64,000 nucleotides of DNA from an uncultured Nitrospiraceae bacterium (GTDB taxonomy: Bacteria > Nitrospirota > Thermodesulfovibrionia > Thermodesulfovibrionales > SM23-35), in contig CAVSHB010000001.1 of assembly GCA_963727775.1 (NCBI GenBank), positions 640,001-704,000 on the forward strand, read 5' to 3'. The translations under genes were made by a program, and so were the position numbers. The notes under the pieces are model-generated. The model worked only from the letters and a program-made list of their open reading frames with translations, ran no database searches and was not told the origin of the DNA. Within the stretch, counting starts at the first letter, position 1; each line of letters begins with the position of its first letter. Positions 1,391 through 19,226 of this stretch are shown piece by piece.

Positions 1391-4300
1391 ATGAAAAAGC
1401 TTAATACCTTAATCTTTGCCATTATTATCTTTAACATCTTTCTTATCACAGGGATACTGATTCCACTTAATTCCGATGCAGCAACTCAAACCATGTATAC
1501 ACCAAACTGGGACACTAACACTATTAGCAAGGCAAATCTTGATGGCTCAGGCGGAGTCAGCCTCAACCTCGGGCTGTTAAATTACCCGTTTGGCATAGCA
1601 ATATCCGGCGAGAGGATGTATGTAGTCAATTATCAAAATAGCAAGGTTATCCGGGCAAATCTTGATGGCACTGGCGCACAAGATATCGGCAACCCCGGAA
1701 GCTTTCTCAGTAATCCGACGGGCATAGCGATATCCGGCGGAAAGATGTATATTGTTGCAATCGACGTGTCCCCTTACAAAGTTGTCCAGGCAAATCTTGA
1801 TGGCACTGGTGCACAAGATCTCGGCAACCTCAACGGTACGCTCAATGTGCCGAGAGGCATAGCAATAGACCCTTCAGGATACATATATGTAGCCAACGCT
1901 GGCGGCAACAACATCAGCAAAGCGGATATTAATGGTGGAGGTGGAGTGAGCCTTGATATCAGCGGACTATGCAACACGCCCGATGGCATAGCGATATCAG
2001 GCGGCAAGATATATGTTGCTTGCAATGGCAGTCAAAACATTGTCCGGTTAAATCTTGATGGCACTGGTGTGCAAAACCTCGGCAACCTGGGAGGGCTAAG
2101 CAAGCCGACGGGCATAGCGATAGACGCTTATGGCGGCAAGATGTATGTAGTGAGCAGTGATAACGGAAATGGCAATCAAAAAATTGTCCAGGCAAATCTT
2201 GACGGTACTGGTGGAACAAACCTAGGCAACTTAAGCGGCGTGCTACATTTTGGGCAGATGATTGCAATATTCACACAGCATAATCTTACGGTAACGAAGA
2301 CCGGCAACGGAACGATAATAAGCCTTCCTGCGGGTATTAATTGTGATACCGATTGCAACGAATTATATACCGAGGGAACTGTCGTTACCCTGAAGGCCAT
2401 TCCTGACGCAGGTTCGTACTTCAATGGATGGACGGGTGACTGCGTGAGTCAGGCATTGGAGTGTAAAGTGACGATGGATGCGGCGAAGAATGTTACCGCC
2501 AATTTCACAACTACTCCTCCATCCGTTCAAACCTGGGCAAAAACCTATGGCGGCACAGGTGGAGATTGGGCCAATTCCATCCAGCAGACCTCGGATGGCG
2601 GTTTCATTGTATCTGGTGCTACCGCGTCATTTGGTTCAGGCAGTAATGATGCATGGATATTGAAGCTTAATGCGGACGGAACAGTAGCATGGCAGAACAC
2701 CTATGGCGGAACGGGAGATGATGGTGCCGGTGCTATCCAGCAGACCTCGGATGGCGGTTACATTGTGGCTGGTAGTACCGCGTCATTTGGCGCAGGCAGT
2801 GCTGATGTATGGATATTGAAGCTTAATGCGGACGGAACAGTGGCATGGCAGAACACCTATGGTGGAACGGGAGATGATGGTGCCGGTGCCATCCAGCAGA
2901 CCTCGGATGGCGGGTACATTGTGGCTGGTAGTACCGCGTTATTTGGCGCAGGCAGTGCTGATGCATGGGTATTGAAGCTTAATGCGGACGGAACCGTAGC
3001 CTGGCAGAAAACCTATGGCGGAGCGGGCAATGATTATGCCAATTCCGTCCAGCAGACCTTAGATGGCGGGTACATTGTGGCTGGTTATACAGATTCATTT
3101 GGTGCAGGTTACGGCGATGCATGGATATTGAAGCTTAATGCGGATGGAACCGTAGCATGGCAAAACGCTTATGGTGGAGCGGGTGCTGATTATGCTGCTG
3201 CCGTCCAGCAGACCTCGGATGGCAGTTACATTGTGGCTGGTTATACCAATTCATTTGGTGCAGGTTCCGGCGATGCATGGATATTGAAGCTTAATGCGGA
3301 CGGAACCGTAGCCTGGCAGAAAACCTATGGCGGAGCGAGCGATGATTATGCCACTGCCGTCCAGCAGACCTCGGATGGCGGTTACATTGTGGCTGGTCGT
3401 GCAGATTCATTTGGTGCAGGTTACGGCGATGCATGGATATTGAAACTTAATGCGGATGGAACAGTGGCCTGGCAGAAAACCTATGGCGGGGCGGGAGATG
3501 ATTATGCCTACTCCGTCCAGCAGACCTCGGATGGCGGTTACATTGTGGTTGGTCGTACAGATTCATTTGGTGCAGGCGGTACGGATATATGGATATTGAA
3601 GCTTGATTCGGCTGGGAATATATCCGGATGCCCTTCAGGATTAATAGGGGTAACAAATGTATTAGGAAGTAGTGCAGGTGCGACTTTGACAGGTACGGCA
3701 GTGATAGCTGCAGGCACTGCTGTTAGCCCTCAGACAAGCATTGCAACTGTAACAGACACGAGCGTTTCAGGGGCGGTTATATGTACCGGTTTGCAGGAGT
3801 ACATGCTGACGGTTGCGAAGTCAGGCACAGGAGTCGGTTCTGTAACAAGCTCTCCCGCAGGTATCAATTGTGATACTTCGAATTTCGACTGTTCTGGGTT
3901 ATATCTTTCAGGCTCTGTCGTAACCCTTACTGCGTCAACGTATTCGGGCAATGCATTTACAGGCTGGTCAGGAGGCGGGTGCACCGGCACAGGAACCTGT
4001 GTTGTAACTGTAAACGCTCCCGTAACGGTAACCGCAAACTTTGATGCGGTGCCGACTTATCAAATGTCTGTTGTCCCATCAGGCACGGGTGCCGGCAGGG
4101 TAACAAGCACACCCGGCTATATCGACTGCAGTACAAATTGCGGTGACTGTTCTTGCGGGCAAAGTTACAATGAAGGCACAGCAGTCACACTTTCTGCAAC
4201 AGCTGATCCGGGGTCGGTATTTACCGGATGGACAGTCTCGGGCAATCCGACCGCTTGTCCCGGTACCGGAAACTGTCAGGTAACTATGAGCGCTGACCAG

Positions 4301-7300
4301 TCGGTGACTGCAGACTTCGAATTAGGTCCTACCATCAGGGTATTGCCGGCAAATTATAATTTCGGAGATACACCTGTCTCGACTCCATTGACACGTGAAG
4401 TGACAATCTCCAATATCGGCAGCGTAGGAAATCTAAACGTTACAAGTGACATGACCTTATCTGATTCTACTAACTATTCCCTGGATACGGGCAGTGGCTC
4501 AAGTCCCTGCGGCAGCACGACGCCGACAATTTCTCCCAGCAGCAATTGCACAGTTGTTATCACATTCACTCCTAAATCAACCGGTATTTTCAATACAACT
4601 CTGTCAATAATTTCAAATGATCCTGTTACACCGACGATAAATGTTCCGATGTCCGGTTCCTCCGGCGCTACAGGGATCAGCTGGGCAAAGACCTATGGCG
4701 GCACAGGTGTAGATAGGGCCAATACCATCCGGCAGACCACGGACGGTGGGTATATTGTAGCTGGATATACCGAGTCATTTGGCGCAGGCAATGGCTATGC
4801 ATGGGTAATGAAGCTTGGTTCAGGTGGTGCTGTGCAGTGGCAGAAGACCTATGGCGGTGGCGGTGTCAATGAAGTGTATTCTGTCCAGCAGACCACGGAC
4901 GGTGGGTATATTGTAGCTGGATATACCAATTCATCTGGTGCAGGCAGTGGCGATGTATGGATAATGAAGCTTGATAGTGATGGAAATGTTGGGTCAGATT
5001 ATTCGGGTACATGGCAGAAGACCTATGGCGGTGGCAATGTTGAGGTAGTGTATTCTATCCAGCAGACCACGGACGGTGGGTATATTGTAGCTGGATATAC
5101 CAGTTCATTTGGTGCAGGCAATGGCGATGCATGGATAATGAAGCTTGATAGTGATGGAAATGTTGGGTCAGATTATTCGGGTACATGGCAGAAGACCTAT
5201 GGCGGTGGCAATGTTGATGCAATGTATTCTATCCGGCAGACCACGGACGGTGGGTATATTGTAGCTGGATATACCGATTCATCTGGTGCAGGCGATAGCG
5301 ATGCATGGGTGATGAAACTCAACACAGACGGAAGCGTTGCATGGCAGAAGACCTATGGCGGTGCAGGTTCGGAGTATGCCTATCCCATTCAGCAGACTAC
5401 GGACGGTGGGTATATTGTGGCTGGAGGTACGTATTCATTTGGTGCAGGCAATGGCGATGCATGGATAATGAAGCTTGATAGTGATGGAAATGTTGGGTCA
5501 GGTTATCCCGGCACATGGCAGAAGACCTATGGCGGTGCAGACTATGACTTTGCCAATTCCATCCAGCAGACTACGGACGGTGGGTATATTGTAGCTGGAG
5601 GTACGTATTCATTTGGTGCAGGCAATGGCGATGTATGGATAATGAAGCTTGATAGTGATGGAAATGTTGGGTCAGGTTATCCAGGCACATGGCAGAAGAC
5701 CTATGGCGGTGCAGGCAATGATTATGCCAATTCTATCCAGCAGACTACGGACGGTGGGTATATTGTAGCTGGATATACTGAGTCATTTGGTGCAGGCAAT
5801 GGCGATGCATGGGTACTGAAGCTTGACTCGTATGGAAATATATCCGGCTGTGCGGCAAGTCTAATAGGTATCACAAATACAAATATATCAGGGATTGATA
5901 CGAATGCTACGGTAACTGATACCAGCGTGACAGGGATAGACACCTCCGTTACTCCACAACCGAGCAGCGCAACCGTAGCCGATACCGGCGTGACAGGTTT
6001 AGATATTTGTCCTCCATTAGGGTCTGTCCTCGATAATCCTTCCTTGACATGGACAACCGGCGGTGATGCACCCTGGTTCGGTGAGACGCTTTTCTCGATT
6101 GACGGGGATGCAGCGCAGAGCGGCGCTATTTCTAATGGGCAGAGTTCAACACTGCAGACGACTATCAATCCCTCTCAAGATGCTATTTTATCATTTTACT
6201 GGAAGGTCTCATCCGACCCTGCTCATGCTTTTTTGACTTTTTATATAGACGACATTGAACAATCAGGAGGACATATAAGCGGCGAGGTTGACTGGCAACT
6301 GAAACAGTATCCAATTTCAGCGGGTACCCATACCATCAAGTGGATTTATTCAAAAGATCCGTCAGCAAGCATCGTTAATTATGATGCGGGCTGGGTTGAT
6401 AAGGTGCAATTGGCAACATTATATAATCTGACAGTCAATAAAACAGGCAGCACAGGAGAGGGAACCGTAATAAGCCTGCCACCCGGCATCAACTGTGATC
6501 TATCGAATACTGACTGTTCTGAAATGTATGGAGATGGCTCTGTCGTTACCTTAAAAGCCGTTCCTGCTGCAGGTTTCTATTTTGCAGGCTGGTCAGGTGA
6601 CTGCGTCAGTCAAGCATTGGAGTGCAAGGTTGCGATAGATGCAGCGAAGACTGTTACCGCCAATTTTACGACTACACCTCCGATAGTGCAAACCTGGGTA
6701 AAGGTCATCGGAGACGCACAGGATGATGAGGCTAATTCTGTACAGCAGACATCGGATGGAGGGTATATTGTTGCGGGTACAAAAGACGGCGGCAGTGAAG
6801 GAACAGGTGATTTCTGGATAATGAAATTAACGGCTGCAGGTGATATCTCCTGGCAGAAGACTTATGGCAACGCAGATTCAGATTGGCCTTATTCTCTGGA
6901 GCAGACTGCGGACGGCGGCTTTATAGTGACCGGTATGACCGGTTATGGAGAATCCGGCAGCGGGCTTATCTGGATGTTAAAGCTCGATAAAGACGGAAAT
7001 ATAGAGTGGCAGAAAGAGTCTGATGGGTATAGTGAGCGCGGGAAGGCCATACACCAGACGTTTGATGGCGGGTATATAGTTATAGGCGAAACCAATTCAA
7101 GCGGCGCCGGATCGCAAGATATTCTGGTTTTAAAACTTGATAAAGACGGAAATATTCTGTGGAAAAAGACTTATGGCAGCGACGGGTATGAAGGAGCCAA
7201 TGATATAAAGCAGACTACAGATGGCGGGTACATTATTTCAGGCTATTCGGGGACCCTCGGCTCCGGAGCCTTTGATGCATGGATAATAAAACTTGATAGT

Positions 7301-10300
7301 AACGGAAATGTGGGGACAGGTTTTCCAGGTACGTGGCAAAAGACCTTTGGCGGAGGCGGCTCTACGAATGATTACCTGTCATCCATTCAGCAGACGTCTG
7401 ATGGCGGGTACATTGCTGCCGGAAATACCGAATCTTTTGGAGAAGGCAGTACCGATTTGTGGGTATTCAAGCTGCTTGCAAATGGTGATATTGACTGGCA
7501 AAAAACATTCGGAAGTACCGGCAATGAAGGGGCCAGTTCCGTACAGGAGGTCTATCAGGGAGGATATGTAATTGCAGGCAGCGGTTTTGACGGCAGCTGG
7601 ATATTGAGACTCGATCAATCCGGGAATAAGATATGGGAAAAGACCTACGGAAATTCAAGCAATGACAATGCCGCATCTGTCCGGCAAACATCGGATAACG
7701 GTTTTATTGTTGCAGGCTGGACTTCGTACCTCGGCAACAATCGTTTCCTGATTGCGAAGCTCGATGCTGATGGAGATGTTGGAGGCTGTTCGTTTATCAG
7801 TTCTGCTGCAAATTCCACAATGCATAATATAAATGCAGTTGTAGGGAACAGTTCAGGAACAATGGGAATCTCTTCAGATACACTCCAGTCAACTTTCGCT
7901 ACAGTCACACCTACAAGTGTAACAGAGGCGAATGTATGCAGCGGAACAGTTATTTTGTGGATCGGAGGAGACGGCAACTGGAGCGACCCTGCAAAATGGA
8001 GCTCCGGGTCTGTTCCGCTGGCAACTGACGATGCTCTGATAACCGTAGACGGCGATTATACGGTAACGGTGGCTTCGGACGCTGCAATACACAACCTGAC
8101 CCTCGGCGGCGCGTCCGGCACTCAGAAGCTTTCGATTAGCAACCCCTTTACATTTACAATAAACGGCGCAAGCACAATCAATAATCATGCCGGAATAGAC
8201 CTGAGCGGAACATTAAATGCAATCGGGGACATGACAATGAACGGCGTCCTGACCTGGAGCGGCGGGACGATCACCGGAGCCGGGGCTTTGATCATAAACA
8301 ACCAGGCGGTACTGAGCGGTACGGATATGACACTTGACGCAAAAACTGTAATCAATAATTCCTGGGTGTCATGGGTATACGGGAATGTTTATTTCAACAA
8401 TGGGGCGCAGTTCAATAATCAGGTCGGCGCGATATTAAGTATAGAGGCGGATTATAGTGCTTCCAGTAGCGCAGGCACCGGCGGTGCATTCAACAATAAC
8501 GGCGGCTTTATTACAAAAAACACAGGCACCGGGACGACGACTCTATCTAACATTGCATTCAATAATGACGGTACAGTGAGCATCGAGAGCGGTACGATTA
8601 AATTCGATAGCTCCATGTCATTTTCTAATACAGGGCCCAGTCGTTTGCAGGGTTATGGCACCCTTGATTTCTCGGGATATCCCTTCGGATCCAACAACGG
8701 CATCATCAGCCCCGGCACATCCATTGGTACCTTGTCCATTATCGGCAACCTCATACAGATGCCTTCGAGTGCTATAAATATCGAAATCGGAGGTACTGCT
8801 CAGTACGACCAGTTGAATATCAACGGCGCTGTTACTTTGGGCGGTACGCTGAATGTGAGTCTGACAGGAGGCTTTACTCCGAGTATAGGCGATACATTCA
8901 CCATCCTGAATTATATATCAAAAAGCGGAACCTTCAGCACTCAAAACCTGCCTTCACTGACGGGAAAGCAATGGAATGTAAACATTGGAGCGACCTCTGT
9001 TGTTTTAACCGTTACATCCAGTGATACCACCCCGCCAACTGTAAGTTCCACGAGCCCGGTTAACAGTGATACAAACGTCCCTATTACCTCGAATATCTCC
9101 GCGACCTTCAGTGAGGCGATGGATGCCTCGACGATCAACGGCTCGACATTCACTGTTAGTGGTGGCGTCACAGGCACTATCAATTATGATGCAATAACCC
9201 ATACCGCCACATTAACTCCGTCTGCGAATCTCGCCTACAGCACGATATACACGGCAACTATTACCGCAGGAGTAAAAGATGTAGCCGGGAATAATATGGC
9301 AGCAGCCTACACATGGACTTTCACTACAGCGGCAGCGCCTCCATGTACATACACATTTAATAATCCGGCAAGTGCGAACGTTCCGAATACGGGCGGAAAC
9401 AACCTCAGTTTCACAGTCACTGCTTCTTCACAGAGTTGTGTTTGGACAGCGAGCAGTAATAATCCCACATGGATCACCAGTGTATCAGGTGGCGCAACGG
9501 GTAATGGAACGGTGACCTATAACGTGTCCGTCAACACAGGGCTTGGCCGGTCCGGTTCGATATCGGTCGGCAGTCAGTCCTTCGTTGTTAATCAGGCGGC
9601 GGAAAACACCCCTCCAACCGTGACCGGTACGAACCCGGTTAACAATGCTACAAGTGTGCCAATTACCAGTGCTGTCTCTGCGACCTTCAGTGAGGCAATG
9701 GATGCGACAACAATAGCAGGGGCAACATTCACCTTAACCGGGGCAGCGGGTGGAGTGACGGGTACAGTTGCATATAATGCGGGGACAAACACTGCAACCT
9801 TTACGCCGTCTGCAAACCTTGCCTACAACACGACATATACGGCAACGATCACAACAGGAGTAAAAGACGTTGCAGGAAACAACATGGCGTCAAACTATAC
9901 ATGGAGTTTTACAACAGCGCCCCAGTATATGCTTAATGTGACTAAAACGGGTACGGGCAGTGGAACAGTAACAGGCAACACACCGCATACGGAGATCAAC
10001 TGCGGAAGCACTTGCAGCGCATCTTATGCCGCAGGAACAAATGTAACTCTTACCGCCGCACCGGCGGCAGGTTCAGGCTTTGCCGGATGGTCTGGGGCAT
10101 GTTCGGGAACCAACAGTTCATCAACCGTGACAATGGGTGGCCCCAGGACATGCACGGCAACATTCAGTGATATTGTTTATCCCACAGTCAGTTCTGCTGC
10201 TCCGAACAGTGGCGCCACAGGTGTTCCTGTGAATACATCCATCTCCGCGACCTTCAGTGAGGCGATGAACGCTTCAACAATAACAGGGGCGACCTTCACC

Positions 10301-13081
10301 TTAACCGGAGTAGCGGGCGCAGTTGCATATAATTCCGGCACAAACACTGCAACCTTTACCCCGTCTGCGAATCTCGCCTACAACACAACCTATACAGCTA
10401 CCGTCACAACAGGGGTTAAGGATATCTCAGGGAATAATATGGCGTCAAACTACATATGGAGCTTCACAACAGCGGCAGCGCCTCAGTACAACCTTAATGT
10501 AACCAAAACAGGAACTGGGACCGGTACTGTCAACAGTTCTGAGACGCCTTCTCCATTGATCAATTGCGGCAGCGCCTGCAGCGCAACATATAATTCCGGT
10601 ACCGTAGTCACGCTTACCGCCACAGCAGCGTCCGGCTCAGCCTTCACTGGCTGGTCAGGGGCCTGTTCAGGAGGGGCGCAGCAGTGTGCGGTAACCATGG
10701 ATGGTACTAAAACAGCTACAGCCAATTTTGACGTAGGCCAGGTCGCAACCCATGTCGTTACCCCATCCTCAGGAGGAAACGGCGATATTAGTCCTGCAAC
10801 ACAGCAGAACGTTCCGGACAATACGCCTGCTTCATTCGCCCTGAACCCTTCCACCGGCTACCACGTCTCCTCTGTGACCGGCACATGCGGAGGCACATTA
10901 AACGGTAATACGTTTACGACAAATCCTGTAAAAAGTAATTGTACTGTAACAGCCAATTTTGCGATCAACACTTACAAAATCACGCCTTCCGTAAATACAC
11001 AGGGAGGCACGCATGGCGTAATAACTCCGTCAGGACTTCAAACAGTCAATTACAATACACCTAAATCTTTTACCCTTACGCCTGTCACGGGGTATTATGT
11101 CGATACGGTTACGGGTGACTGCGGAGGCACATTAACCGGCAATGCTTTTAAAACGAATCCGGTGACCGCTGACTGTGCTGTAGTCGCCAACTTTGCGGCT
11201 AATACATACAGTGTTTCTACATCCATCGGCAGCGGCACAGGGGGAAGTATCAGCCCTACGGGTGTAACCGTAAACTACAGGGACAGGCCGCAATTCACAA
11301 TAACTCCCGATACGGGTTTTCATATCGGATCAGCAAGCGGCTGCGGCGGCTCTTTGAGCGGCAATACCTATACAACCGGCCAGATAACCTCAAACTGTAC
11401 GGTGGCCGCTTCATTTGCGATCAATACTTATACTATCTCAACTTCTGCCGGAACAGGCGGCGGGATCAGCCCCATGAGCGCCAAGCCAAATTATGGAGAC
11501 ACCCCGCAGTTTATGATAAACCCGAACGACGGTTACCATATCGTTTCTGTGAGCGGCTGCGGCGGTTCATTAAACGGCAATACTTATAAAACCGGCCAGA
11601 TTACAGGGAACTGCACGGTGACCGCAAGCTTTGCAATCAATACATATAATGTTTCCACATCTTCAGGCACAGGGGGTAACATAAGTCCTGTTAGCGCAAC
11701 AGTCGGTCAGGGGAACCCAACACAATTCATCCTAACGCCCGACGTCGGGTATCACATTGCATCAGTATCAGGTTGTGGGGGAACGCCGTTCCAGAGCTTA
11801 AATGTTATCACTTCAAAAAAGAAGCCAAAAAGAAATGCGCTCTTGAACAACACTTACACAACCGGTCCCATCACAGCGGATTGCACAGTCACAGCAGAAT
11901 TTGCAATCAACACTTATACCGTCACACCTTCTGCAGGAGCGCATGGAGGCATTAGTCCCTCATCTCCGCAGACAGTGGAAAACAATAACCCGATCTCATT
12001 CGGAATAAATCCTGATGCCGGTTATCATATCAATTCTGTGAGCGGCTGCGGCGGCGCATTATCCGGCGACATTTATAAAACAGGCCTGATCACAGGGGAT
12101 TGTACAGTCACAGCTTCTTTTGCGATCGATACCCACCTCGTTTCGACTTCAGCAGGTCAGGGCGGAGAAATCAACCCTGCAAGCGCGACGGTCAATGATG
12201 GTAGCACGACACAGTTCACTATAACTCCCGATGACGGATATTATCTCATCTCAGTATCAGGCTGTGGAGGAACACCTTTGCTGAGTTCAGGCGCAACGGC
12301 GAGAAAGCAGAAGAGTTCGCTCTCCGCTTACACATATAAGACCGGGCCGATAACAGCGGATTGTACAGTTATAGCGGAATATGCGGTAAGCATTTTTACT
12401 GTGACTCCTTCGGCGGTAGGGAACGGCAGCATTGATCCTTCAACTCCCCAAACAGCAAAATATAATGATAAGCTCACATTTACCATTAAGCCTGATTCGG
12501 GTTATCATATCACAACAGTGTCCGGCTGCGGCGGGTCTCTGTCCGGCAACATTTTTACCACCGGCAATATTACGGGGGATTGTATAGTCTCCGTATCTTT
12601 CGCAGTAAACACATATGTTGTTACAGCTTCTGCCGATCAGAACGGCAGCATTGTGCCTTCCGGGCGCCAGTACGCGGCCTATAATGAAATGCTGTCATTC
12701 ACCGTAACTCCGGACAACCATTACCACATCTCTTCTGTTACAGGCTGTGGTGGAACGCTCTCCGGCAACACATACACGACCGGGCCTATCACTCAAGACT
12801 GTAATGTCAATGCCGGATTTGCTATAGACGCCTATGAATTTGCAATCTCTATATCAGGCACAGGCAGCGGTACCATAACTGCGAATGGATTGTCCTGTAT
12901 AGGGAACGCCTGTTCAGAATTTCCGTATGGCATAAAGGTAGTCTTCAAGATACAGCCGGACCCCGGTTGCCGTGTAGCCGATATCAAGATTGACGGGGTC
13001 TCTATCGGCGCGGTTAATACCATAACCTTTAAGCAGATGACCAGTGATCATACTATTGAGGTTGTTTTTGAGACAATGTAA
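1391..13081 (+). CDS. Giant (3896 aa) secreted modular adhesin/surface protein: signal peptide, YWTD/NHL-like propeller, three WQKTYGG beta-propellers, InlB B-repeat-like domains, Big_5 Ig domains, BACON-like domain, passenger-like segment
   Basis: Hydrophobic N-terminus; PxGIAI/ANLDG repeats; QQTxDGGYIVAG repeats; FxGWSGxC repeats; ISATFSEAM repeats. Confidence 0.9.
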   Translation: MKKLNTLIFAIIIFNIFLITGILIPLNSDAATQTMYTPNWDTNTISKANLDGSGGVSLNLGLLNYPFGIAISGERMYVVNYQNSKVIRANLDGTGAQDIGNPGSFLSNPTGIAISGGKMYIVAIDVSPYKVVQANLDGTGAQDLGNLNGTLNVPRGIAIDPSGYIYVANAGGNNISKADINGGGGVSLDISGLCNTPDGIAISGGKIYVACNGSQNIVRLNLDGTGVQNLGNLGGLSKPTGIAIDAYGGKMYVVSSDNGNGNQKIVQANLDGTGGTNLGNLSGVLHFGQMIAIFTQHNLTVTKTGNGTIISLPAGINCDTDCNELYTEGTVVTLKAIPDAGSYFNGWTGDCVSQALECKVTMDAAKNVTANFTTTPPSVQTWAKTYGGTGGDWANSIQQTSDGGFIVSGATASFGSGSNDAWILKLNADGTVAWQNTYGGTGDDGAGAIQQTSDGGYIVAGSTASFGAGSADVWILKLNADGTVAWQNTYGGTGDDGAGAIQQTSDGGYIVAGSTALFGAGSADAWVLKLNADGTVAWQKTYGGAGNDYANSVQQTLDGGYIVAGYTDSFGAGYGDAWILKLNADGTVAWQNAYGGAGADYAAAVQQTSDGSYIVAGYTNSFGAGSGDAWILKLNADGTVAWQKTYGGASDDYATAVQQTSDGGYIVAGRADSFGAGYGDAWILKLNADGTVAWQKTYGGAGDDYAYSVQQTSDGGYIVVGRTDSFGAGGTDIWILKLDSAGNISGCPSGLIGVTNVLGSSAGATLTGTAVIAAGTAVSPQTSIATVTDTSVSGAVICTGLQEYMLTVAKSGTGVGSVTSSPAGINCDTSNFDCSGLYLSGSVVTLTASTYSGNAFTGWSGGGCTGTGTCVVTVNAPVTVTANFDAVPTYQMSVVPSGTGAGRVTSTPGYIDCSTNCGDCSCGQSYNEGTAVTLSATADPGSVFTGWTVSGNPTACPGTGNCQVTMSADQSVTADFELGPTIRVLPANYNFGDTPVSTPLTREVTISNIGSVGNLNVTSDMTLSDSTNYSLDTGSGSSPCGSTTPTISPSSNCTVVITFTPKSTGIFNTTLSIISNDPVTPTINVPMSGSSGATGISWAKTYGGTGVDRANTIRQTTDGGYIVAGYTESFGAGNGYAWVMKLGSGGAVQWQKTYGGGGVNEVYSVQQTTDGGYIVAGYTNSSGAGSGDVWIMKLDSDGNVGSDYSGTWQKTYGGGNVEVVYSIQQTTDGGYIVAGYTSSFGAGNGDAWIMKLDSDGNVGSDYSGTWQKTYGGGNVDAMYSIRQTTDGGYIVAGYTDSSGAGDSDAWVMKLNTDGSVAWQKTYGGAGSEYAYPIQQTTDGGYIVAGGTYSFGAGNGDAWIMKLDSDGNVGSGYPGTWQKTYGGADYDFANSIQQTTDGGYIVAGGTYSFGAGNGDVWIMKLDSDGNVGSGYPGTWQKTYGGAGNDYANSIQQTTDGGYIVAGYTESFGAGNGDAWVLKLDSYGNISGCAASLIGITNTNISGIDTNATVTDTSVTGIDTSVTPQPSSATVADTGVTGLDICPPLGSVLDNPSLTWTTGGDAPWFGETLFSIDGDAAQSGAISNGQSSTLQTTINPSQDAILSFYWKVSSDPAHAFLTFYIDDIEQSGGHISGEVDWQLKQYPISAGTHTIKWIYSKDPSASIVNYDAGWVDKVQLATLYNLTVNKTGSTGEGTVISLPPGINCDLSNTDCSEMYGDGSVVTLKAVPAAGFYFAGWSGDCVSQALECKVAIDAAKTVTANFTTTPPIVQTWVKVIGDAQDDEANSVQQTSDGGYIVAGTKDGGSEGTGDFWIMKLTAAGDISWQKTYGNADSDWPYSLEQTADGGFIVTGMTGYGESGSGLIWMLKLDKDGNIEWQKESDGYSERGKAIHQTFDGGYIVIGETNSSGAGSQDILVLKLDKDGNILWKKTYGSDGYEGANDIKQTTDGGYIISGYSGTLGSGAFDAWIIKLDSNGNVGTGFPGTWQKTFGGGGSTNDYLSSIQQTSDGGYIAAGNTESFGEGSTDLWVFKLLANGDIDWQKTFGSTGNEGASSVQEVYQGGYVIAGSGFDGSWILRLDQSGNKIWEKTYGNSSNDNAASVRQTSDNGFIVAGWTSYLGNNRFLIAKLDADGDVGGCSFISSAANSTMHNINAVVGNSSGTMGISSDTLQSTFATVTPTSVTEANVCSGTVILWIGGDGNWSDPAKWSSGSVPLATDDALITVDGDYTVTVASDAAIHNLTLGGASGTQKLSISNPFTFTINGASTINNHAGIDLSGTLNAIGDMTMNGVLTWSGGTITGAGALIINNQAVLSGTDMTLDAKTVINNSWVSWVYGNVYFNNGAQFNNQVGAILSIEADYSASSSAGTGGAFNNNGGFITKNTGTGTTTLSNIAFNNDGTVSIESGTIKFDSSMSFSNTGPSRLQGYGTLDFSGYPFGSNNGIISPGTSIGTLSIIGNLIQMPSSAINIEIGGTAQYDQLNINGAVTLGGTLNVSLTGGFTPSIGDTFTILNYISKSGTFSTQNLPSLTGKQWNVNIGATSVVLTVTSSDTTPPTVSSTSPVNSDTNVPITSNISATFSEAMDASTINGSTFTVSGGVTGTINYDAITHTATLTPSANLAYSTIYTATITAGVKDVAGNNMAAAYTWTFTTAAAPPCTYTFNNPASANVPNTGGNNLSFTVTASSQSCVWTASSNNPTWITSVSGGATGNGTVTYNVSVNTGLGRSGSISVGSQSFVVNQAAENTPPTVTGTNPVNNATSVPITSAVSATFSEAMDATTIAGATFTLTGAAGGVTGTVAYNAGTNTATFTPSANLAYNTTYTATITTGVKDVAGNNMASNYTWSFTTAPQYMLNVTKTGTGSGTVTGNTPHTEINCGSTCSASYAAGTNVTLTAAPAAGSGFAGWSGACSGTNSSSTVTMGGPRTCTATFSDIVYPTVSSAAPNSGATGVPVNTSISATFSEAMNASTITGATFTLTGVAGAVAYNSGTNTATFTPSANLAYNTTYTATVTTGVKDISGNNMASNYIWSFTTAAAPQYNLNVTKTGTGTGTVNSSETPSPLINCGSACSATYNSGTVVTLTATAASGSAFTGWSGACSGGAQQCAVTMDGTKTATANFDVGQVATHVVTPSSGGNGDISPATQQNVPDNTPASFALNPSTGYHVSSVTGTCGGTLNGNTFTTNPVKSNCTVTANFAINTYKITPSVNTQGGTHGVITPSGLQTVNYNTPKSFTLTPVTGYYVDTVTGDCGGTLTGNAFKTNPVTADCAVVANFAANTYSVSTSIGSGTGGSISPTGVTVNYRDRPQFTITPDTGFHIGSASGCGGSLSGNTYTTGQITSNCTVAASFAINTYTISTSAGTGGGISPMSAKPNYGDTPQFMINPNDGYHIVSVSGCGGSLNGNTYKTGQITGNCTVTASFAINTYNVSTSSGTGGNISPVSATVGQGNPTQFILTPDVGYHIASVSGCGGTPFQSLNVITSKKKPKRNALLNNTYTTGPITADCTVTAEFAINTYTVTPSAGAHGGISPSSPQTVENNNPISFGINPDAGYHINSVSGCGGALSGDIYKTGLITGDCTVTASFAIDTHLVSTSAGQGGEINPASATVNDGSTTQFTITPDDGYYLISVSGCGGTPLLSSGATARKQKSSLSAYTYKTGPITADCTVIAEYAVSIFTVTPSAVGNGSIDPSTPQTAKYNDKLTFTIKPDSGYHITTVSGCGGSLSGNIFTTGNITGDCIVSVSFAVNTYVVTASADQNGSIVPSGRQYAAYNEMLSFTVTPDNHYHISSVTGCGGTLSGNTYTTGPITQDCNVNAGFAIDAYEFAISISGTGSGTITANGLSCIGNACSEFPYGIKVVFKIQPDPGCRVADIKIDGVSIGAVNTITFKQMTSDHTIEVVFETM
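2530..3610 (+). repeat. Intragenic tandem repeat, 156-nt period, about 7 blades
   Basis: attgaagcttaatgcgg recurs at 2659, 2815, 2971, 3127. Confidence 0.9.
4680..5830 (+). repeat. Intragenic tandem repeat, 156/174-nt period, about 7 blades
   Basis: gaagacctatggcgg recurs (5017 and 5191 are 174 nt apart); longer blades carry NVGSDYSGT/NVGSGYPGT. Confidence 0.9.
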
Positions 13082-13089
13082 AAGTTAAT

Positions 13090-14391
13090 TCAGTGGGTTG
13101 CACAGCTGAGACAGGGATCGAATATCCTTACACACCGGCTGATGAGTTTCTCGCCTTCTCCGGATATCCTGTCTCCTTCTAAATGTTTTTCTGCCAGATG
13201 TCTAAGAAAAAAGTTGATGTAGGCGTTATTAAACTGTGTGGCAACCAGAAGACGCATGCGTTCAATCTTCCCCTGATTGACGAGGTAACTGTGCATAAGT
13301 ATCCCTCGCGGCGCCTCTAAGACACCTGTCCCCTGTCCGCTTGCCGTCAGATCAGCGTCGACGGTCATCTGTGCAAGGTCTATCTTCTCTGTCAGATGAA
13401 GTATTTTTTTTGCGGCCCAGAAGATCTCCAGAAGGCGGCAGGCGTCATACGACTCCAGTGTCAATGAACTGCGGTTGCGTAACAGATTAGTAAGGTCAAG
13501 ATTAAGCAAATCCGGGTCGTGCAATGGTCCATTCTCCTGGAAACTACGGGACAGAGGCCCAACGAGCATGATCCCGTCCGGAAACCCCAGTCTTGTTAAA
13601 AAAGGAAATTTGGCAAGAGTCCAATCAGTTCTTAATTCGGAAATGTTATCCATAAAATCGTTGCGTCCAAAACGGAATTCCTGTCCTCCTTTTTGATTGT
13701 ATACGCAGAATGCGTCTTCTCCATCATTGCCATCGTAAGCTACAAAGTTAATGCGTTGTTCCGAAGGGAAAGGGATACTTTTCGACGAAGAATGAATCTC
13801 CCCGAGTTGTTGAATGAGACTTAGTGTGCGCGCTTTGACATCCATAGTTATAGTGCGAATTTCTTCAATGTCGGCAGAAGATGGAGACGAAGAAAAGCGG
13901 CCTATCCCGATCGTTACAGGATGAGACGTGCGTTTCCCCAGGAGCCGGACAATGCGCAATCCTGCATTACGCAGAGCAAAGGCTTCCCTCGTTATATCGG
14001 GGTGACTTTTCATAAGTTCAAAAATTCCTGCAGATGCGCCCATAAAGTCAGGCATGGTCAGAAAAAAATAACTTAAAGCGTGGCTGTCGATCCATTCACC
14101 TAATACCATTATTTCGCGGAGGGCTTTTACAGAGGGGGTCGGCTGGATCGATAGCGCTTCTTCAATGGCGCTGATTGAAGCAACCTGATGGGAGGATGAA
14201 CACAGGCCGCAGATCCGTGAGACCATATGAGGAACATGCTCAACACGCAGCCCGCGGGTAAATCCTTCAAAACCGCGAAACTCATGTACCAAAAACCGCG
14301 CTGTCTTTATTTTGCCTTCTTCGACCTCGATCTGAATATTGGCGTTTCCCTCTATTCGCGTGGCCTTCTGAAAAAGAATTTTTTTGCTCAT
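13090..14391 (-). CDS. [NiFe]-hydrogenase large subunit, group 3-like, with no C-terminal extension
   Basis: TRIEG, L1 RICGLCSSSH, EAPRG, L2 DPCLSCATH immediately followed by stop. Confidence 0.92.
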   Translation of the reverse strand: MSKKILFQKATRIEGNANIQIEVEEGKIKTARFLVHEFRGFEGFTRGLRVEHVPHMVSRICGLCSSSHQVASISAIEEALSIQPTPSVKALREIMVLGEWIDSHALSYFFLTMPDFMGASAGIFELMKSHPDITREAFALRNAGLRIVRLLGKRTSHPVTIGIGRFSSSPSSADIEEIRTITMDVKARTLSLIQQLGEIHSSSKSIPFPSEQRINFVAYDGNDGEDAFCVYNQKGGQEFRFGRNDFMDNISELRTDWTLAKFPFLTRLGFPDGIMLVGPLSRSFQENGPLHDPDLLNLDLTNLLRNRSSLTLESYDACRLLEIFWAAKKILHLTEKIDLAQMTVDADLTASGQGTGVLEAPRGILMHSYLVNQGKIERMRLLVATQFNNAYINFFLRHLAEKHLEGDRISGEGEKLISRCVRIFDPCLSCATH

Positions 14392-16286
14392 CTGATCCTC
14401 GATCTGTCACTCGGGAAATAGCGGTTGAACTTGAGTGAGCTGTTCGCATGTTTGCGGTAGATCTTCATCACCGACTTGATCTGGTCTTCCAAATGCGGAT
14501 GGCGTCCAACGAGTGAACTTAGCATGACCTCTTCAAAACTGCTCCCTTCGTCCATTTTTTTGAAAGCAGTCTGCGAAGGTCCGCGACATCCCCAGCACGG
14601 AAGGCCACCCCGAGGACAGACAGCCCCGCAGCCGCCCTTTGTCATGAATCCCATACATATAGCGCCACGGGAAGTGAAACAATGGTCTTTTCCCCATTCA
14701 GGTCTTGGGGCGACCCAGAAATGCTCTGCCGGAATTTTCTGCGGTTTGCGGCTGCACTCAGCACATACAATGGGTTTTGTTTTTACAGATTGCGCTTCAC
14801 CTTTGAGTTCGTTAATGAGCCGGCTGAGAAGGCCGACGTTTGGCGGGCATCCCGGAAGGTAATAATCAACCCTGACGAAATCATCCAGTTTCCTTGCGCG
14901 TCTGAGCAGTTTTAATTCCTCTTCCTGGTCCTGGTAAGTTGCCCGGGCTATCCCGCGCGAGCCCGACATGTAATATGCGAGGGGGTCTTTTGCATGGCCG
15001 TAAGATTCTTCGATCAATTCCTCAAGTTCGTATTGGTTGGCATAAGCCGGTATACCTCCAAAAGCGGCGCATGTCCCCCATGCAATGAGATATTTGGCCT
15101 TATGGCGGGCTTCTATAAGCTTTTCCTCGTCTTCTTTAACCCTTACCGTGCCATCAACAATTGCGATTTCTACCTCTACGATTTCTTCGGCATCAATCAG
15201 CATAGGGCAATATGAGATATTTATCTTTTTGAGAAGGTTTGTCAGCATTGCTTGGTCTTCCAGCAATACCGCAGAACAACCGCCGCAGGTGGACAAAGAA
15301 ACAATAGCAGTGCTGGTCCGGTTTTTCTTTCTCAATGGAGGAGGCATGTTGCGCATAATTACGCCTATTGATTTTTCAGGAGCGTTCAACGTCATCAACA
15401 GCATCCGCAGGCGGATGATTAAGCCCTGCAATATATACAGACCCAGTTCGGGTTCTGCCTTAATCCTCTCGGTGAACTCGTCCAGCTTTACAGGAAACAA
15501 TAGGGTACGCCCGGCAGCAGAAGCGTGGGCTGTCCTGCTTTGGCCGGTGATTATGGATGTCTCCCCAAAAAATTCTCCAGGTCCTAAATGCGCTAAAACG
15601 TACCTGTCATTATCCGGTCCCTGGCTGATCTCAATCTTGCCCTCGACTACAATAAATAGCCTGTCGCCGGGATCACCCTGATGAAATATGTATTCTCCAT
15701 CCTCGAACCATACACATTCTTCCCGATTGACAGAGACATCAACTGAAGAGTGTAATGACTTCTCTCGTGTCGGTAAATCTTTCAGATCTTCAGATTCCTG
15801 ATATCCCGCAGCCTGTGTGGACCCTGATTTTACGATGACATCAATATCAGGCGGCTGCGGGGATTCTGTCTGCTCATTCCGTTTATTTTCAATCAGGGCG
15901 CGTAAATTTTCATCGCCTTCAACTACAGCCTGCACGAGACGGCTTGTTTTTGTAATCCGCAGGCATAAAGTCTTAAACAGATGCGTGATCACTCCGGGAT
16001 CATGACGTATACGATTCAGCAATGATATACGGGTCAGGGGTAAAAGACAACTGCGGCTGATTGCTGTGGCAGTGGCTGCCCTGGCGTGATGGTCAAACAG
16101 CGCCATTTCTCCAAAAAAGTCCCCACGTTCCAATAATGCGAGAACATTCTTCTGCTCGTCTTTATTCCGGCTGATCTCAACAGCCCCCGATTGAATAATG
16201 TACATGGTATTACCCTGGTCGCCCTCACGGAATATGATCGCGCCTTTCTCGTAGGTAATGCCGAAAAGCTCTTCGCCCTTGCTCAT
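14388..16286 (-). CDS. Fusion of two cNMP-binding domains with a [NiFe]-hydrogenase small subunit (HydD/MvhG-like)
   Basis: GDFFGEMALF..RAAT and GEFFGETSII..RTAH cassettes; then TCGGC, GTCAAFGGIP, PGCPP, CAEC, GCGAVCP..CWGCRG; ATGA overlap with the large subunit; start could be 16286 (ATG) or 16334 (TTG). Confidence 0.92.
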   Translation of the reverse strand: MSKGEELFGITYEKGAIIFREGDQGNTMYIIQSGAVEISRNKDEQKNVLALLERGDFFGEMALFDHHARAATATAISRSCLLPLTRISLLNRIRHDPGVITHLFKTLCLRITKTSRLVQAVVEGDENLRALIENKRNEQTESPQPPDIDVIVKSGSTQAAGYQESEDLKDLPTREKSLHSSVDVSVNREECVWFEDGEYIFHQGDPGDRLFIVVEGKIEISQGPDNDRYVLAHLGPGEFFGETSIITGQSRTAHASAAGRTLLFPVKLDEFTERIKAEPELGLYILQGLIIRLRMLLMTLNAPEKSIGVIMRNMPPPLRKKNRTSTAIVSLSTCGGCSAVLLEDQAMLTNLLKKINISYCPMLIDAEEIVEVEIAIVDGTVRVKEDEEKLIEARHKAKYLIAWGTCAAFGGIPAYANQYELEELIEESYGHAKDPLAYYMSGSRGIARATYQDQEEELKLLRRARKLDDFVRVDYYLPGCPPNVGLLSRLINELKGEAQSVKTKPIVCAECSRKPQKIPAEHFWVAPRPEWGKDHCFTSRGAICMGFMTKGGCGAVCPRGGLPCWGCRGPSQTAFKKMDEGSSFEEVMLSSLVGRHPHLEDQIKSVMKIYRKHANSSLKFNRYFPSDRSRIR

Positions 16287-16529
16287 GGAGATATGCTCTG
16301 CGCACTTTGAATAAGCACGCTGTTTCCTCCTCAATTCAGTTCGGTCCTGCCTGCTCCAGGCTGAAACAGTATAACATATGGATAATGCCGATAAGGAACA
16401 ACAATATATAACCCGGGAAAATTTTGGCGGGATATATGGTTTTCAGGCATGGTATCATATTACACGTCAAGTCGAAAGAAAAACCCCTCGTCCGGGAAGG
16501 ATGGTGCTTAGTGCTAAGGAACAGGTCTT

Positions 16530-18506
16530 ATGCTGGGAGATAGATCAAAAAAAGCTCAGGTCATTTTCCTCATAGGAATTTTCATTACGGGGTTACTGGC
16601 ATTTTTAATGGTCATAAAATTTCGTCCCCTTGAAAGTCTCGAAGGCATGATGTACGACCTGAGATTCAGACTTATGGGGAATACGCCGCCTCCTGAAAAT
16701 ATTGTTATCGCTGCGATAGACGATAAAAGCATCGAAAGACTCGGGAGATGGCCGTGGAGCAGAGATAAGATTGCCCGGCTTATCACAAAGCTGACTGAAG
16801 CAGGGGCAGAGTTGATTGTATTTGATGTATTCATGACCGAAAAAGAAGAACACGATCCGGTCTTCGTTAAGACCGTGAGAGATGCGGGAAACGTTTTGCT
16901 TCCCCTTGTCTTTTACTTTGACAGGAGGACGGATACCAAAGAGAGCGAGCCTTTGTTGAACGCTGCGTTTCATTCAATTAAGGACGCCGAGAAGTTTAAC
17001 AGATATGCTCCCCTGAGTGTTAAGGGTGTTCTTGCCCCTTTGCCGGAACTCATCCGGGAATCTATGTCGCTCGGACATATCAATATGGTCCCGGACAGAG
17101 ACGGAATTCTCCGGTGGGAAATGATGGCCCTTGAATATCATGGATACCTGTATCCATCCCTGGACGCCCAGACAGCAGCAGTTTATCTTGCAATACCACA
17201 TGAGAAAGTAAGTGTTCATGCCACTGAAGGGATACAATTAGGGTCTAAACGATATATCCCGACTGATGAATATGGCAGGAGCCTGATTTTCTATTATGGA
17301 CCGTCAGGTACATTCAGGCAATTTTCAATTGCCGATATAATGGAAGACAAAATACCGTCCGGATTCCTGCAGGGTAAAATCGTGCTTATCGGTGCAACGG
17401 CGCTGGGGATTTATGATCTCAGGGTGACGCCTTTTTCCGAGGTCATGGCCGGAGTCGAAAAGCATGCAAATGTTATTGCTTCCGTCATCGAAAACAGGTT
17501 CCTCAGGAAAGCTCCCTTCTATGTAAACCTCATTATACTTCTGCTCTCCGGGTTTATTCTCTCTATTACAGTAGGAAGATTTAAGTCCGGCATTTCGTTC
17601 ATCATCTCCTTTATTATGACTTTATTTCTAATAACGCTTAGTTACTGGTTGTTTGCCGGAAAGGGTATTTGGATAAATGTCGGATATCCGGTCATTACCG
17701 TGTTGCTTGTATTTGTAAACGGGACAGCCTATAGCTATGCTGCCGAGGAGACATATGCAAGGAAAATACGTACCATGTTTTCAAGCTATGTAACAGAGAG
17801 GGTCGTTGATGAACTAATCAAGAACCCGGGTATGGCAAAACTCGGAGGCGAGAGAACAGAGGTGACCATTCTTTTCTCGGATGTGAGGGGGTTTACAGCT
17901 TTTTCTGAAAACCATTCGCCTGAAGAAGTCGTTACAATCCTCAATGAGTATCTCGGGGCCATGACAGAGATCATATTTAAGTGGGAGGGCACACTCGACA
18001 AGTTTATAGGGGACGCTATCCTGGCCTTTTGGGGTGCTCCAATGAAGCAGGATAACCATGCTGATCTCGCTGTAAAATGTGCGCTGAACATGGTAAAAAA
18101 ACTCGATGAACTGCAGCAGAAGTGGATTTCTGAGGGGAAGCCTGCCCTTAATGCCGGGATAGGAATAAATACCGGCGAAGTGATCGTGGGCAATATCGGG
18201 GTAGAAGGTAAGAAAATGGACTATACGATTATCGGAGACCATGTGAACCTTGCGTCAAGAGTTGAGTCGTTGACGAAAAAGTACAATGCCGCTCTTCTAT
18301 TAACGGAATTTACTTTAAATAAAATAAAGGGGGCCATAGTTGGGGGAAGAATAAGCCATGTAGAGGCGACAGGACTGGAGAGGGTCATCGTAAAAGGCAA
18401 GGAAAAAGCGGTTGCTATTTATGAAGCCAAGTCGCTCGAACACGGCGGTCAAAGCAGGATTGTTGAATGTGAGGAAGGGAAAATAGTGCGCCACAAAGAA
18501 AAATAG
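16530..18506 (+). CDS. CHASE2-domain class III adenylate cyclase
   Basis: GRWPWSR and GVEKHAN CHASE2 motifs, 3 TM helices, LFSDVRGFT, DKFIGDA, DYTIIGDHVNLASR. Confidence 0.95.
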   Translation: MLGDRSKKAQVIFLIGIFITGLLAFLMVIKFRPLESLEGMMYDLRFRLMGNTPPPENIVIAAIDDKSIERLGRWPWSRDKIARLITKLTEAGAELIVFDVFMTEKEEHDPVFVKTVRDAGNVLLPLVFYFDRRTDTKESEPLLNAAFHSIKDAEKFNRYAPLSVKGVLAPLPELIRESMSLGHINMVPDRDGILRWEMMALEYHGYLYPSLDAQTAAVYLAIPHEKVSVHATEGIQLGSKRYIPTDEYGRSLIFYYGPSGTFRQFSIADIMEDKIPSGFLQGKIVLIGATALGIYDLRVTPFSEVMAGVEKHANVIASVIENRFLRKAPFYVNLIILLLSGFILSITVGRFKSGISFIISFIMTLFLITLSYWLFAGKGIWINVGYPVITVLLVFVNGTAYSYAAEETYARKIRTMFSSYVTERVVDELIKNPGMAKLGGERTEVTILFSDVRGFTAFSENHSPEEVVTILNEYLGAMTEIIFKWEGTLDKFIGDAILAFWGAPMKQDNHADLAVKCALNMVKKLDELQQKWISEGKPALNAGIGINTGEVIVGNIGVEGKKMDYTIIGDHVNLASRVESLTKKYNAALLLTEFTLNKIKGAIVGGRISHVEATGLERVIVKGKEKAVAIYEAKSLEHGGQSRIVECEEGKIVRHKEK

Positions 18507-18556
18507 TGGGCCCGGAAAATCCGGTTGACGGTTATGTCACCGGTTCTATGAGTTAA

Positions 18557-18714
18557 CCCACTTAATTCATAAAATATACGGGTGCCGACAAATACAGTAT
18601 TTACGCTCATTCTCGGCCCGGTACAAATCGGGCCTCCGAGGCAAATTCTTTCTTCGAAAGAATTTAAAACCGCTTAAATACTGCATCTGTCGGCAATCTT
18701 ATGAATAGTGCGGG
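18557..18714 (+). mobile_element. 158-bp MITE-like structured repeat, copy 1
   Basis: Near-identical to 27052-27209 (reverse) and 31989-31997+32601-32749; imperfect terminal IRs; TTAA on both sides. Confidence 0.85.
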
Positions 18715-18728
18715 TTAAAATAGCAGGC

Positions 18729-19226
18729 ATGAGAATACGACTCGCATTCGGGTTCATCGTTTATTTTATCGGAACCTGTTTGCACGAACTAACGCATTAT
18801 GTTGCAGCCCTCCTATTGGGGAAGGCTGAAGGTTTTTCGGTAATCCCCAGGACGGAAGGGAACCGATTTGTACTCGGCAGTGTAAGGTATAGGGTCAGAT
18901 ATAAGTTCCTGTCATCTTTTATAGCCGTAGCCCCTCTCGCCTGGTGGGCAATCCTGTTCCTGATATTGCTTTATCTCCATATCATCCGGCTGCGCAATGG
19001 CATACCAATAATCGGTTATGAACTGATCGCGAAAAAGCTCAGGTCCTTTTCCTTTTCAGATGCTTTTTACCTGTGGGTATTTATGCAAATGGTGTGGGCT
19101 GGGCACCTCTCCGTGCAAGATACAAAAAATGTTTTTAGAGGAATATTCTCTGTCTCGGGACTGGTTTTTCTGTCAGTAGTGATAATCCTGTTCTATCTGT
19201 TTCGGTACTTTATCTTGAATTTTTAA
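18729..19226 (+). CDS. Membrane protein with HExxH motif (putative zinc metalloprotease)
   Basis: LHELTHY, AVAPL, several TM segments; the upstream GTG at 18708 lies inside the MITE. Confidence 0.7.
   Translation: MRIRLAFGFIVYFIGTCLHELTHYVAALLLGKAEGFSVIPRTEGNRFVLGSVRYRVRYKFLSSFIAVAPLAWWAILFLILLYLHIIRLRNGIPIIGYELIAKKLRSFSFSDAFYLWVFMQMVWAGHLSVQDTKNVFRGIFSVSGLVFLSVVIILFYLFRYFILNF

Follow-up and report, generated by a model that had tools for sequence, protein, structure and literature searches.

Can a hydrogenase carry its own receptor for a second messenger? The question is raised by a 64,000-nucleotide stretch of DNA (hereafter the window; positions 640,001 to 704,000 of contig CAVSHB010000001.1, assembly GCA_963727775.1) from an uncultured Nitrospiraceae bacterium, whose genome of 3.43 Mb in 4 contigs is 96.8% complete. 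In it, one open reading frame (ORF) joins two cyclic-nucleotide-binding (cNMP) domains to the small subunit of a [NiFe]-hydrogenase, next to the gene of the large subunit and opposite to a gene for a membrane-bound nucleotide cyclase. An earlier reading made without database searches (the sequence-only reading) had proposed a hydrogenase controlled by cyclic AMP (cAMP). We find that the fusion architecture is real and conserved, and that it belongs to a rare and apparently undescribed kind of group 3 [NiFe]-hydrogenase that carries its own cNMP-receptor domains. As to its function, our preferred reading, held at about even chances, is a group 3-derived cytoplasmic [NiFe]-hydrogenase whose H2 turnover would be switched by cAMP on its two cNMP domains.

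According to Pfam, the fusion protein contains two stretches of cNMP_binding (E = 1.5e-46) and Oxidored_q6 at residues 334-490. The homologue set used throughout comprises the 120 listed proteins (the window's own and 119 others) among at least 496 matches. Both PF00027 and PF01058 are present in 120/120 of them, at 45-68% identity for the 119 others, and a 53-member cluster of the ESM Atlas holds the same two families. The phosphate-binding cassettes read FFGEMALFDHHARAA (G59, E60, R69) in the first domain (cNMP1) and FFGETSIITGQSRTA (G241, E242, R251) in the second (cNMP2). The three cNMP1 residues are found in 112/112 sequences that cover this domain; in cNMP2, G241 and E242 occur in 120/120 and R251 in 117/120, and the cassettes of both domains are intact in 107 of the 110 full-length homologues. 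The linker between the domains varies from 35 to 81 residues across the family. Conservation of cNMP1 (0.72) is close to that of the hydrogenase domain (0.73), and the pairwise identities of one module correlate with those of the other (rho about 0.7).

A contig from the independent run X4 spans positions 14518-15658, across the junction between cNMP2 and the small subunit, with 86 differences and no gap (~92% identity). Another, from run X1, bridges the overlap of the small- and large-subunit genes, while none of the contigs listed for four runs bridges hydrogenase and cyclase. The 120/120 two-family homologues and the gap-free X4 contig rule out an assembly chimera or other fusion artefact. 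The search for the architecture, proposed by the sequence-only reading, and the contig check of the junction both came out in favour of the fusion. Searching for shorter homologues gave 87 proteins, most of which look by eye like fragments that begin inside the gene; P0262 and P0281 may be unfused or cut, and clearly unfused homologues (29-40% identity) lie outside the family clade. In the fragment P0298, the small subunit seemingly bears one cNMP domain of hybrid type, such as recombination between cNMP1 and cNMP2 would yield. No description of a cNMP-hydrogenase small-subunit fusion was found in the full-text literature, in which subscription journals are mostly uncovered.

Twelve cysteines of the small subunit fit three 4Fe-4S clusters (C334, C337, C406 and C480; C508, C511, C536 and C544; C553, C557, C564 and C567), and C360 is an extra thirteenth. 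Each of the 13 is retained in at least 119/120 sequences and the terminal R632 is invariant. Together with the Pfam matches and the cassette residues, these cysteines bear out the earlier claim that two cNMP domains with intact cassettes sit on a hydrogenase small subunit in one ORF. The claimed overlap stands as well: at 14388-14391 an ATGA combines the small-subunit stop with the start of the large-subunit gene, whose product (Pfam NiFeSe_Hases) carries the two CxxC motifs RICGLC and DPCLSC, the latter within DPCLSCATH-stop. All four Ni-ligand cysteines are invariant in the 120 large-subunit sequences. At least 97% of the 120 also retain E14, E42, D115, R362, D425 and H433, across homologues at 57-79% identity; these residues we take to include the catalytic Glu, the canopy Arg and Asp, the Mg-binding Glu and the terminal His. 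Two features set the large subunit apart from six group 3 controls: an invariant C318 and a family-specific N16, where 5/6 controls have His. Because the window's fusion protein and large subunit have no predicted membrane helix and a Tat motif occurs in 0/120 small-subunit proteins, the hydrogenase is likely cytoplasmic.

To which group does the enzyme belong? The best sequence match of the small-subunit domain is MvhG/VhuG (E = 3.2e-46), and the large subunit matches MvhA (E = 4e-52), with ~27-32% identity to group 3 enzymes. Its full-length matches are group 3 enzymes only, not group 2. All NCBIfam subgroup models score far below their cut-off (169 of 450; 173 of 800), and the automatic annotation label on the family is 'F420-non-reducing hydrogenase'. 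In a quick tree of the large subunit (17 family and 18 other rows, with long branches), the family forms its own clade outside two 3c-like rows (stem 1.69, SH-aLRT 100); a quick small-subunit tree likewise gives one family clade with full SH-aLRT support and a stem of 1.02, the row 3d_Lich, a 107-residue ORF, to be disregarded. The large-subunit tree shows the family as a seemingly distinct lineage outside the sampled groups 3b, 3c and 3d, and is silent on its origin because it holds no group 3a rows and no outgroup. None of the genes mvhD, hdr, hyhBG or hoxEFU was recognised at the window or at 26 family loci, whose neighbours were Pfam-scanned in part. Every family locus seen is a two-gene unit; the 3b and 3d controls do have diaphorase subunits, and the source genome's own 3c enzyme stands, by our reading, with mvhD/hdr genes. 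By the features tested, the enzyme is not a member of groups 3b, 3c, 3d or 2b/2c. It does not descend from the group 2b/2c sensors, which the sequence-only reading had cited: by sequence matches and tree the enzyme derives from group 3.

The large subunit ends at H433 and has no C-terminal maturation tail. In fact, only three residues follow the last CxxC in 120/120 listed large subunits, in comparison to tails of 25 and 11 residues in the source genome's own 3c and 3b enzymes. The available text of PMC7294309 describes the same kind of ending for H2-sensing hydrogenases. Could the protein then be an H2 sensor that evolved separately from group 3? H2-reduced clusters would alter the conformation of the cNMP pair or its affinity for cAMP, and this pair, in turn acting on a cyclase, phosphodiesterase or kinase, would be a joint detector of H2 and cAMP. 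The lack of redox partner genes at the family loci, the frequent signalling genes nearby, the other NiFe hydrogenase(s) present in 10/10 carriers tested and the long stems in both subunit trees would all suit such a sensor. Against it, no output gene is constant: neighbours differ by locus, and 8/19 loci have none. In addition, N-terminal cNMP domains are usually inputs. We consider the sensor possible but rather unlikely.

Tail loss as a proof of H2 sensing was rejected. It is no sensor marker because a 3b-like tail-less clade exists (12 loci), the inspected member of which, L101, has diaphorase-like partners encoded by hyhB- and hyhG-like genes. The 3b-like large subunits that end at the terminal His are those of L092, L094, L098, L099, L101, L103, L104, L106, L107, L113, L114 and L116, and the eight of these 12 that are in the tree form one clade. 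Group 3 is not listed among the tail-less enzymes in the available text of PMC7294309.

The AlphaFold model of the fusion protein (mean pLDDT 75.3, pTM 0.71, 97 low-confidence residues) shows two cNMP barrels with long C-helices at residues 98-123 and 279-301. Each helix carries a conserved arginine, R110 in 115/116 sequences and R292 in 120/120. The C-helix of cNMP2 is followed by a short helix and a Pro-rich joint, after which comes the small subunit's first strand, just before C334 of the proximal cluster. A superposition of cNMP1 with the CRPs of Thermus and Mycobacterium results in Z 14.9 and 2.3-2.6 Å over 114-118 residues, the C-helix included. The tandem domains of protein kinase A (PKA) fit the model at 8-16 Å only. 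The cNMP domains thus look CRP-like rather than PKA-like, and the PKA regulatory-subunit analogy drawn by the sequence-only reading, a poor fit to domains that each end in a long CRP-type C-helix, is not favoured. The pTM of 0.71, together with single-domain targets that align across residues 5-314, hints that the two domains are paired through their C-helices as in a CRP dimer.

In cNMP1, T114 and S115 occupy what is presumably the position of the adenine-reading pair of CRP; the family has mostly Thr, then Asn or Asp. The corresponding positions of cNMP2 are hydrophobic. Most sequences have Ser or Thr directly behind the cassette Arg, and these residues do not discriminate between cAMP and cyclic GMP (cGMP). 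The source genome's cNMP domain closest to cNMP1 (38%) lies in a 288-residue protein (contig C1:45043-45909), followed by a GAF-like part by our own reading.

These pocket residues bear on a second alternative, in which the domains would bind a ligand other than cAMP (cGMP, some other cyclic nucleotide or, as is reported of HoxI, a pyridine nucleotide) or would serve mainly as a docking scaffold, the nearby cAMP genes being part of a shared variable genomic island. The Ser or Thr after the cassette Arg, the degenerate state of some neighbouring cyclases and, within the own family, the frequent placement of the hydrogenase genes at one spot after hisC with changing neighbours are consistent with this. 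The family nevertheless keeps the cassette Arg, which is lost in HoxI and in the 3b cNMP protein, whose identity to the fusion is 23-24%; the window cyclase has the Lys and Thr of adenylate type; and the linkage to cyclic-nucleotide genes recurs in the delta-proteobacterial loci L001, L002 and L185. We therefore regard another ligand or a scaffold as quite unlikely.

We next consider where a cyclic nucleotide could come from. The cyclase gene starts at 16530 on the opposite strand, which agrees with the earlier observation of a class III cyclase close by: 243 bp separate this start from the fusion ATG. Pfam finds CHASE2 (E = 1.8e-63) and Guanylate_cyc (E = 1.3e-26) in the product, for which four membrane helices are predicted. 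The residues D451 and D495 (presumably the metal-binding Asp pair), N573 and R577 (presumably the catalytic Asn and Arg) and K491 and T566, to which we assign the ATP specificity, are all present. The adenylate-type Lys and Thr named by the sequence-only reading are thus in place. We regard the CHASE2 cyclase as the likely local source of cAMP. It is one of two class III cyclases in the source genome, whose sole class II phosphodiesterase is encoded 18 kb away from the large subunit. The phosphodiesterase gene is followed by a cNMP-kinase fragment, an insertion sequence (IS) element, a TPR protein and a FecR-like protein (all four labels are our own reading), and then by a surface protein of 3896 residues. 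The block from phosphodiesterase to FecR-like protein (contig C1:634221-641281, ending at window position 1281) is likely a cell-surface cAMP signalling island. The phosphodiesterase and the cNMP-kinase fragment are located before the window starts, with the surface protein between them and the hydrogenase. Further along the window, at 29743-31290 on the minus strand, a 515-residue cNMP and Ser/Thr-kinase-like protein resembles the hydrogenase flankers in L083, L170 and L177.

Is this neighbourhood shared by the relatives? A divergent CHASE2 cyclase directly upstream is found at 0/26 other family loci. We counted cNMP, cyclase, CHASE2 or class II phosphodiesterase genes within 5 kb, using profiles made here and seeded with family neighbours, at loci with flanks of at least 1.5 kb. 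Such a gene is present at 11/19 family loci, compared to 3/24 other group 3 loci and 3.6% of random source-genome positions, a contrast inflated because of kinship among the loci. Left out for short flanks were 7 family loci, two of them with an adjacent phosphodiesterase, and 5 control loci; the three positive control loci owe their hits to HoxI, a 3b cNMP gene and a CRP-like regulator. Counting only cyclases and class II phosphodiesterases within 5 kb gives 7/26 family loci, 0/29 control loci and 0.9% of random positions. One of the seven is L085, whose CHASE2 protein is cut at a contig end and for which Pfam reports CHASE2 only. We read the enrichment in cyclic-nucleotide genes as genuine, not as a measured probability. 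The predicted linkage to cyclases in homologues therefore holds for cyclic-nucleotide genes in general but not for the divergent CHASE2 cyclase.

The kinds of neighbours are class II phosphodiesterases (L172-L176), cyclases (L081, L172), cNMP-kinases (L083, L170, L177), a GNAT-cNMP protein (L174), an MMPL-cNMP-GGDEF protein (L001) and a SulP-STAS-cNMP protein (L002). Many are thus fusions of cNMP with an effector (kinase, GNAT, MMPL-GGDEF, SulP-STAS), and of the Pfam-scanned loci, L001 alone has an adjacent GGDEF domain. In the single-contig genome G023, the sole class III cyclase match is a CHASE2 protein 9.5 kb from the hydrogenase. We favour direct switching by cAMP because relatives so often adjoin genes that make, degrade or bind cyclic nucleotides. 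Because the surrounding cNMP proteins are mostly effectors and no output gene is constant, we rank the cAMP-gated enzyme above the H2 sensor.

How might the switch work? The Hyp machinery, encoded elsewhere, would load the NiFe site, and no protease step would be needed. A signal at the CHASE2 domain would raise cAMP, which the class II phosphodiesterase would remove. The two CRP-type domains would pair via their C-helices like a CRP dimer, that is, as a single-chain CRP-like pair, and cAMP would shift the C-helix of cNMP2, which is tied ~30 residues before the first proximal-cluster Cys. This shift could open or close the electron flow along the three clusters, and the electrons would pass to a generic carrier supplied in trans, e.g. 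ferredoxin.

Several observations weigh against cAMP gating. An electron partner gene is absent at every locus seen, which leaves the output unexplained. The lost tail, the His-to-Asn exchange at position 16 and the other hydrogenases of all ten carriers fit a sensor equally well. In the pocket, cNMP2 lacks the polar C-helix pair of cNMP1, and the residue after the cassette Arg leaves cAMP and cGMP undistinguished. The G023 cyclase lacks the specificity Lys, and 8/19 family loci have no cyclic-nucleotide gene within 5 kb. Moreover, one bacterial family contributes 10/26 loci, the control loci are by-catch and stem from other taxa, and the profiles were family-seeded. Finally, the gene is interrupted in 3/9 own-family relatives and in G640, in one case by an IS110 element; some of these copies may be assembly errors.

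The gating and sensing functions could also be joined. We tentatively envisage an unnamed subgroup with wiring between H2 and cAMP in both directions, in which the CRP-like pair would gate the enzyme and the redox state of the clusters, set by H2, would in turn influence both cAMP binding and the cyclase, phosphodiesterase or kinase nearby. This we hold to be rather improbable; if true, the family would provide the first hydrogenase gated by a second messenger, and H2 sensing would have arisen independently for a third time.

The comparison with known systems places the family apart from each of them. With MvhAG/VhuAG (group 3c, PDB-code: 5odc) it shares the fold (Z 18.1, rmsd 5.0, 268 aligned residues) and the three-cluster Cys pattern; it differs by the absence of mvhD/hdr at the locus, the missing tail, the two cNMP domains and its separate clade. 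HoxI, which belongs to the Cupriavidus necator soluble hydrogenase HoxFUYHI2 (group 3d), comes closest as a precedent; there, a pair of cNMP-fold domains likewise modulates a group 3 enzyme. The available parts of PMC3702609 and PMC12319191 describe HoxI as a cNMP-fold homodimer on the diaphorase and as an NADPH activation site. HoxI is, however, a separate subunit with His in place of the cassette Arg, whereas the family is fused to the Fe-S subunit, has intact cassettes and lacks a diaphorase; at 23% identity and with the Arg lost, orthology was rejected. Some group 3b operons also hold a cNMP-fold gene, e.g. Francci3_4499 of Frankia and one on the Paraburkholderia plasmid pOLGA1 (PMC11879354, available text), but this gene stands alone between diaphorase genes, has a degenerate cassette in the one copy examined and is 24% identical. 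The earlier statement that no cNMP-gated hydrogenase has been characterised thus holds in that no such fusion was found described, and needs qualifying in that the cNMP-fold HoxI and the 3b cNMP gene are known.

The regulatory hydrogenases of groups 2b (HoxBC-HoxJ) and 2c resemble the family in their two subunits, missing maturation tail and nearby signalling genes (PMC7294309, PMC5037454, each in its available text), and HydDB places the histidine-kinase- and diguanylate-cyclase-linked sensors in group 2 (PMC5037454, likewise). In contrast, the family belongs to group 3 by sequence, has no constant histidine kinase or diguanylate cyclase and bears the signalling module inside the enzyme. CRP and Bd1971 (cNMP-EAL) share the barrel and long C-helix (Z about 15); the family differs in having two domains per chain, no DNA-binding domain and a metalloenzyme as effector. 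PtdE of ptdABCDEFG combines, in the accessible portion of bioRxiv 10.1101/2023.11.21.568154, a cNMP domain with 4Fe-4S clusters in a putative electron-transfer chain with no assigned function; likened here by description alone, it is not a hydrogenase.

Close homologues are named Nitrospirota (Thermodesulfovibrionales), and more distant ones Deltaproteobacteria and Chloroflexi. At E 1e-60, scoring only three candidates in each genome, the fusion turned up in 9/56 other genomes of its own family and in 0/333 elsewhere in the class. The large subunit was detected in 4/251 genomes of one delta-proteobacterial class sample, 1/301 Anaerolineae and 1/401 of the phylum, the centre genome being counted each time; in this phylum-wide sample of 401, only the centre genome was positive. 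Two alignment-based collection scans listed 4/80 and 11/77 loci that are family members, the rest showing the generic cNMP motif, and give no census because this motif swamped the listed loci.

Such rarity and patchiness, the several interrupted copies, the exchange of the conserved His16 for Asn and the extra invariant Cys would fit a module that no longer turns over H2, either a relic, in decay or put to a new use, or a redox sensor that responds to a different gas or to the redox state of the cell. Yet the four Ni ligands and the six further active-site residues are conserved at 57-79% identity, and the genomes G390 and G640 have hypF, hypD and hypE preceding the hydrogenase genes (locus L001 included) and a NiFeSe-type hydrogenase ~12 kb away. 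We consider such a loss of H2 turnover very unlikely. HypD is encoded in the source genome and in 5/5 other carriers tested. In the source genome's hyp cluster (C2:880885-890479), hypF-like sequence is spread over two ORFs and a hypB-like gene is seemingly truncated (our own labels; only HypD was scanned), which may reflect assembly indels.

The features of the locus are listed in Table 1. For the fusion gene, ATG 16286 is preferred over a longer TTG start at 16334, which is unlikely, because the deposited protein and most homologues begin at the MSxGEELFG position.

Table 1. Features of the hydrogenase-cyclase locus, in window coordinates.
Feature	Position	Strand	Basis
Fusion gene, 632 aa: cNMP1-linker-cNMP2-MvhG-like three-cluster [NiFe]-hydrogenase small subunit	14388..16286	-	Pfam + sequence
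cNMP domain 1, aa ~11-123: cassette G59-E60...R69, long C-helix with R110 and T114-S115	15918..16256	-	
Inter-domain linker, aa 141-182, variable, predicted disordered	15741..15866	-	
cNMP domain 2, aa ~190-301: cassette G241-E242...R251	15384..15719	-	
Small-subunit domain, aa 324-632	14388..15317	-	
Group 3-type [NiFe]-hydrogenase large subunit, 433 aa	13090..14391	-	
Divergent intergenic region, 243 bp	16287..16529	.	
Membrane CHASE2 class III nucleotide cyclase, 658 aa	16530..18506	+	
Ig-like/beta-propeller surface protein, 3896 aa; context, not part of the enzyme	1391..13081	+	

The first eight residues of the fusion protein (16263-16286, minus strand) are, to our knowledge, identical to the start of the jellyfish green fluorescent protein; the family consensus has the same start, and on that account we take them to be natural sequence and the identity to be a coincidence. 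Directly upstream, a strong ribosome-binding-site-like GAGGAGG is followed by a 12-codon frame with a GTG start (16283-16321, minus strand), whose stop overlaps the fusion ATG as ATGA; it is possibly a leader for translational coupling, or due to chance. No consensus promoter or CRP box was called in the divergent region, and scans for promoters, terminators and CRP boxes did no better than chance (9 found vs. 8.8 expected; 35 vs. 26.5, matched by 13/100 shuffles). Rfam gave no match within 12800-19600.

Directly 3' of the cyclase (about 18550-18720) lies a ~170-bp repeat with ~60 matches in the genome and no Rfam match. It folds as a long branched hairpin (z -7.9) and looks like a miniature inverted-repeat transposable element (MITE) or a repetitive extragenic palindromic (REP)-type element; in the independent run X4 a similar element is found directly 3' of the large-subunit gene. 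The surface protein contains Big_5, Flg_new_2, DUF5122 and NHL-like repeats, and its convergent gene ends 8 bp from the large-subunit stop. Two overlapping ORFs at 24240-25936 (plus strand) resemble, by our own reading, genes for a DNA methyltransferase and a restriction enzyme of type II.

What would the finding mean for these organisms? Hydrogenases are controlled mainly via transcription, maturation and redox state, and in the full-text literature we found none with its own second-messenger receptor. If cAMP gates the enzyme, signals at the cell envelope would be linked to H2 flux within seconds. If true, a new subgroup would have been hidden by its automatic annotation as 'F420-non-reducing hydrogenase', and the two genes would encode a hydrogenase that needs no protease and can be switched by a ligand, readily testable and attractive for enzyme design. 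If the protein is a sensor instead, it would represent an independent invention of H2 sensing from group 3.

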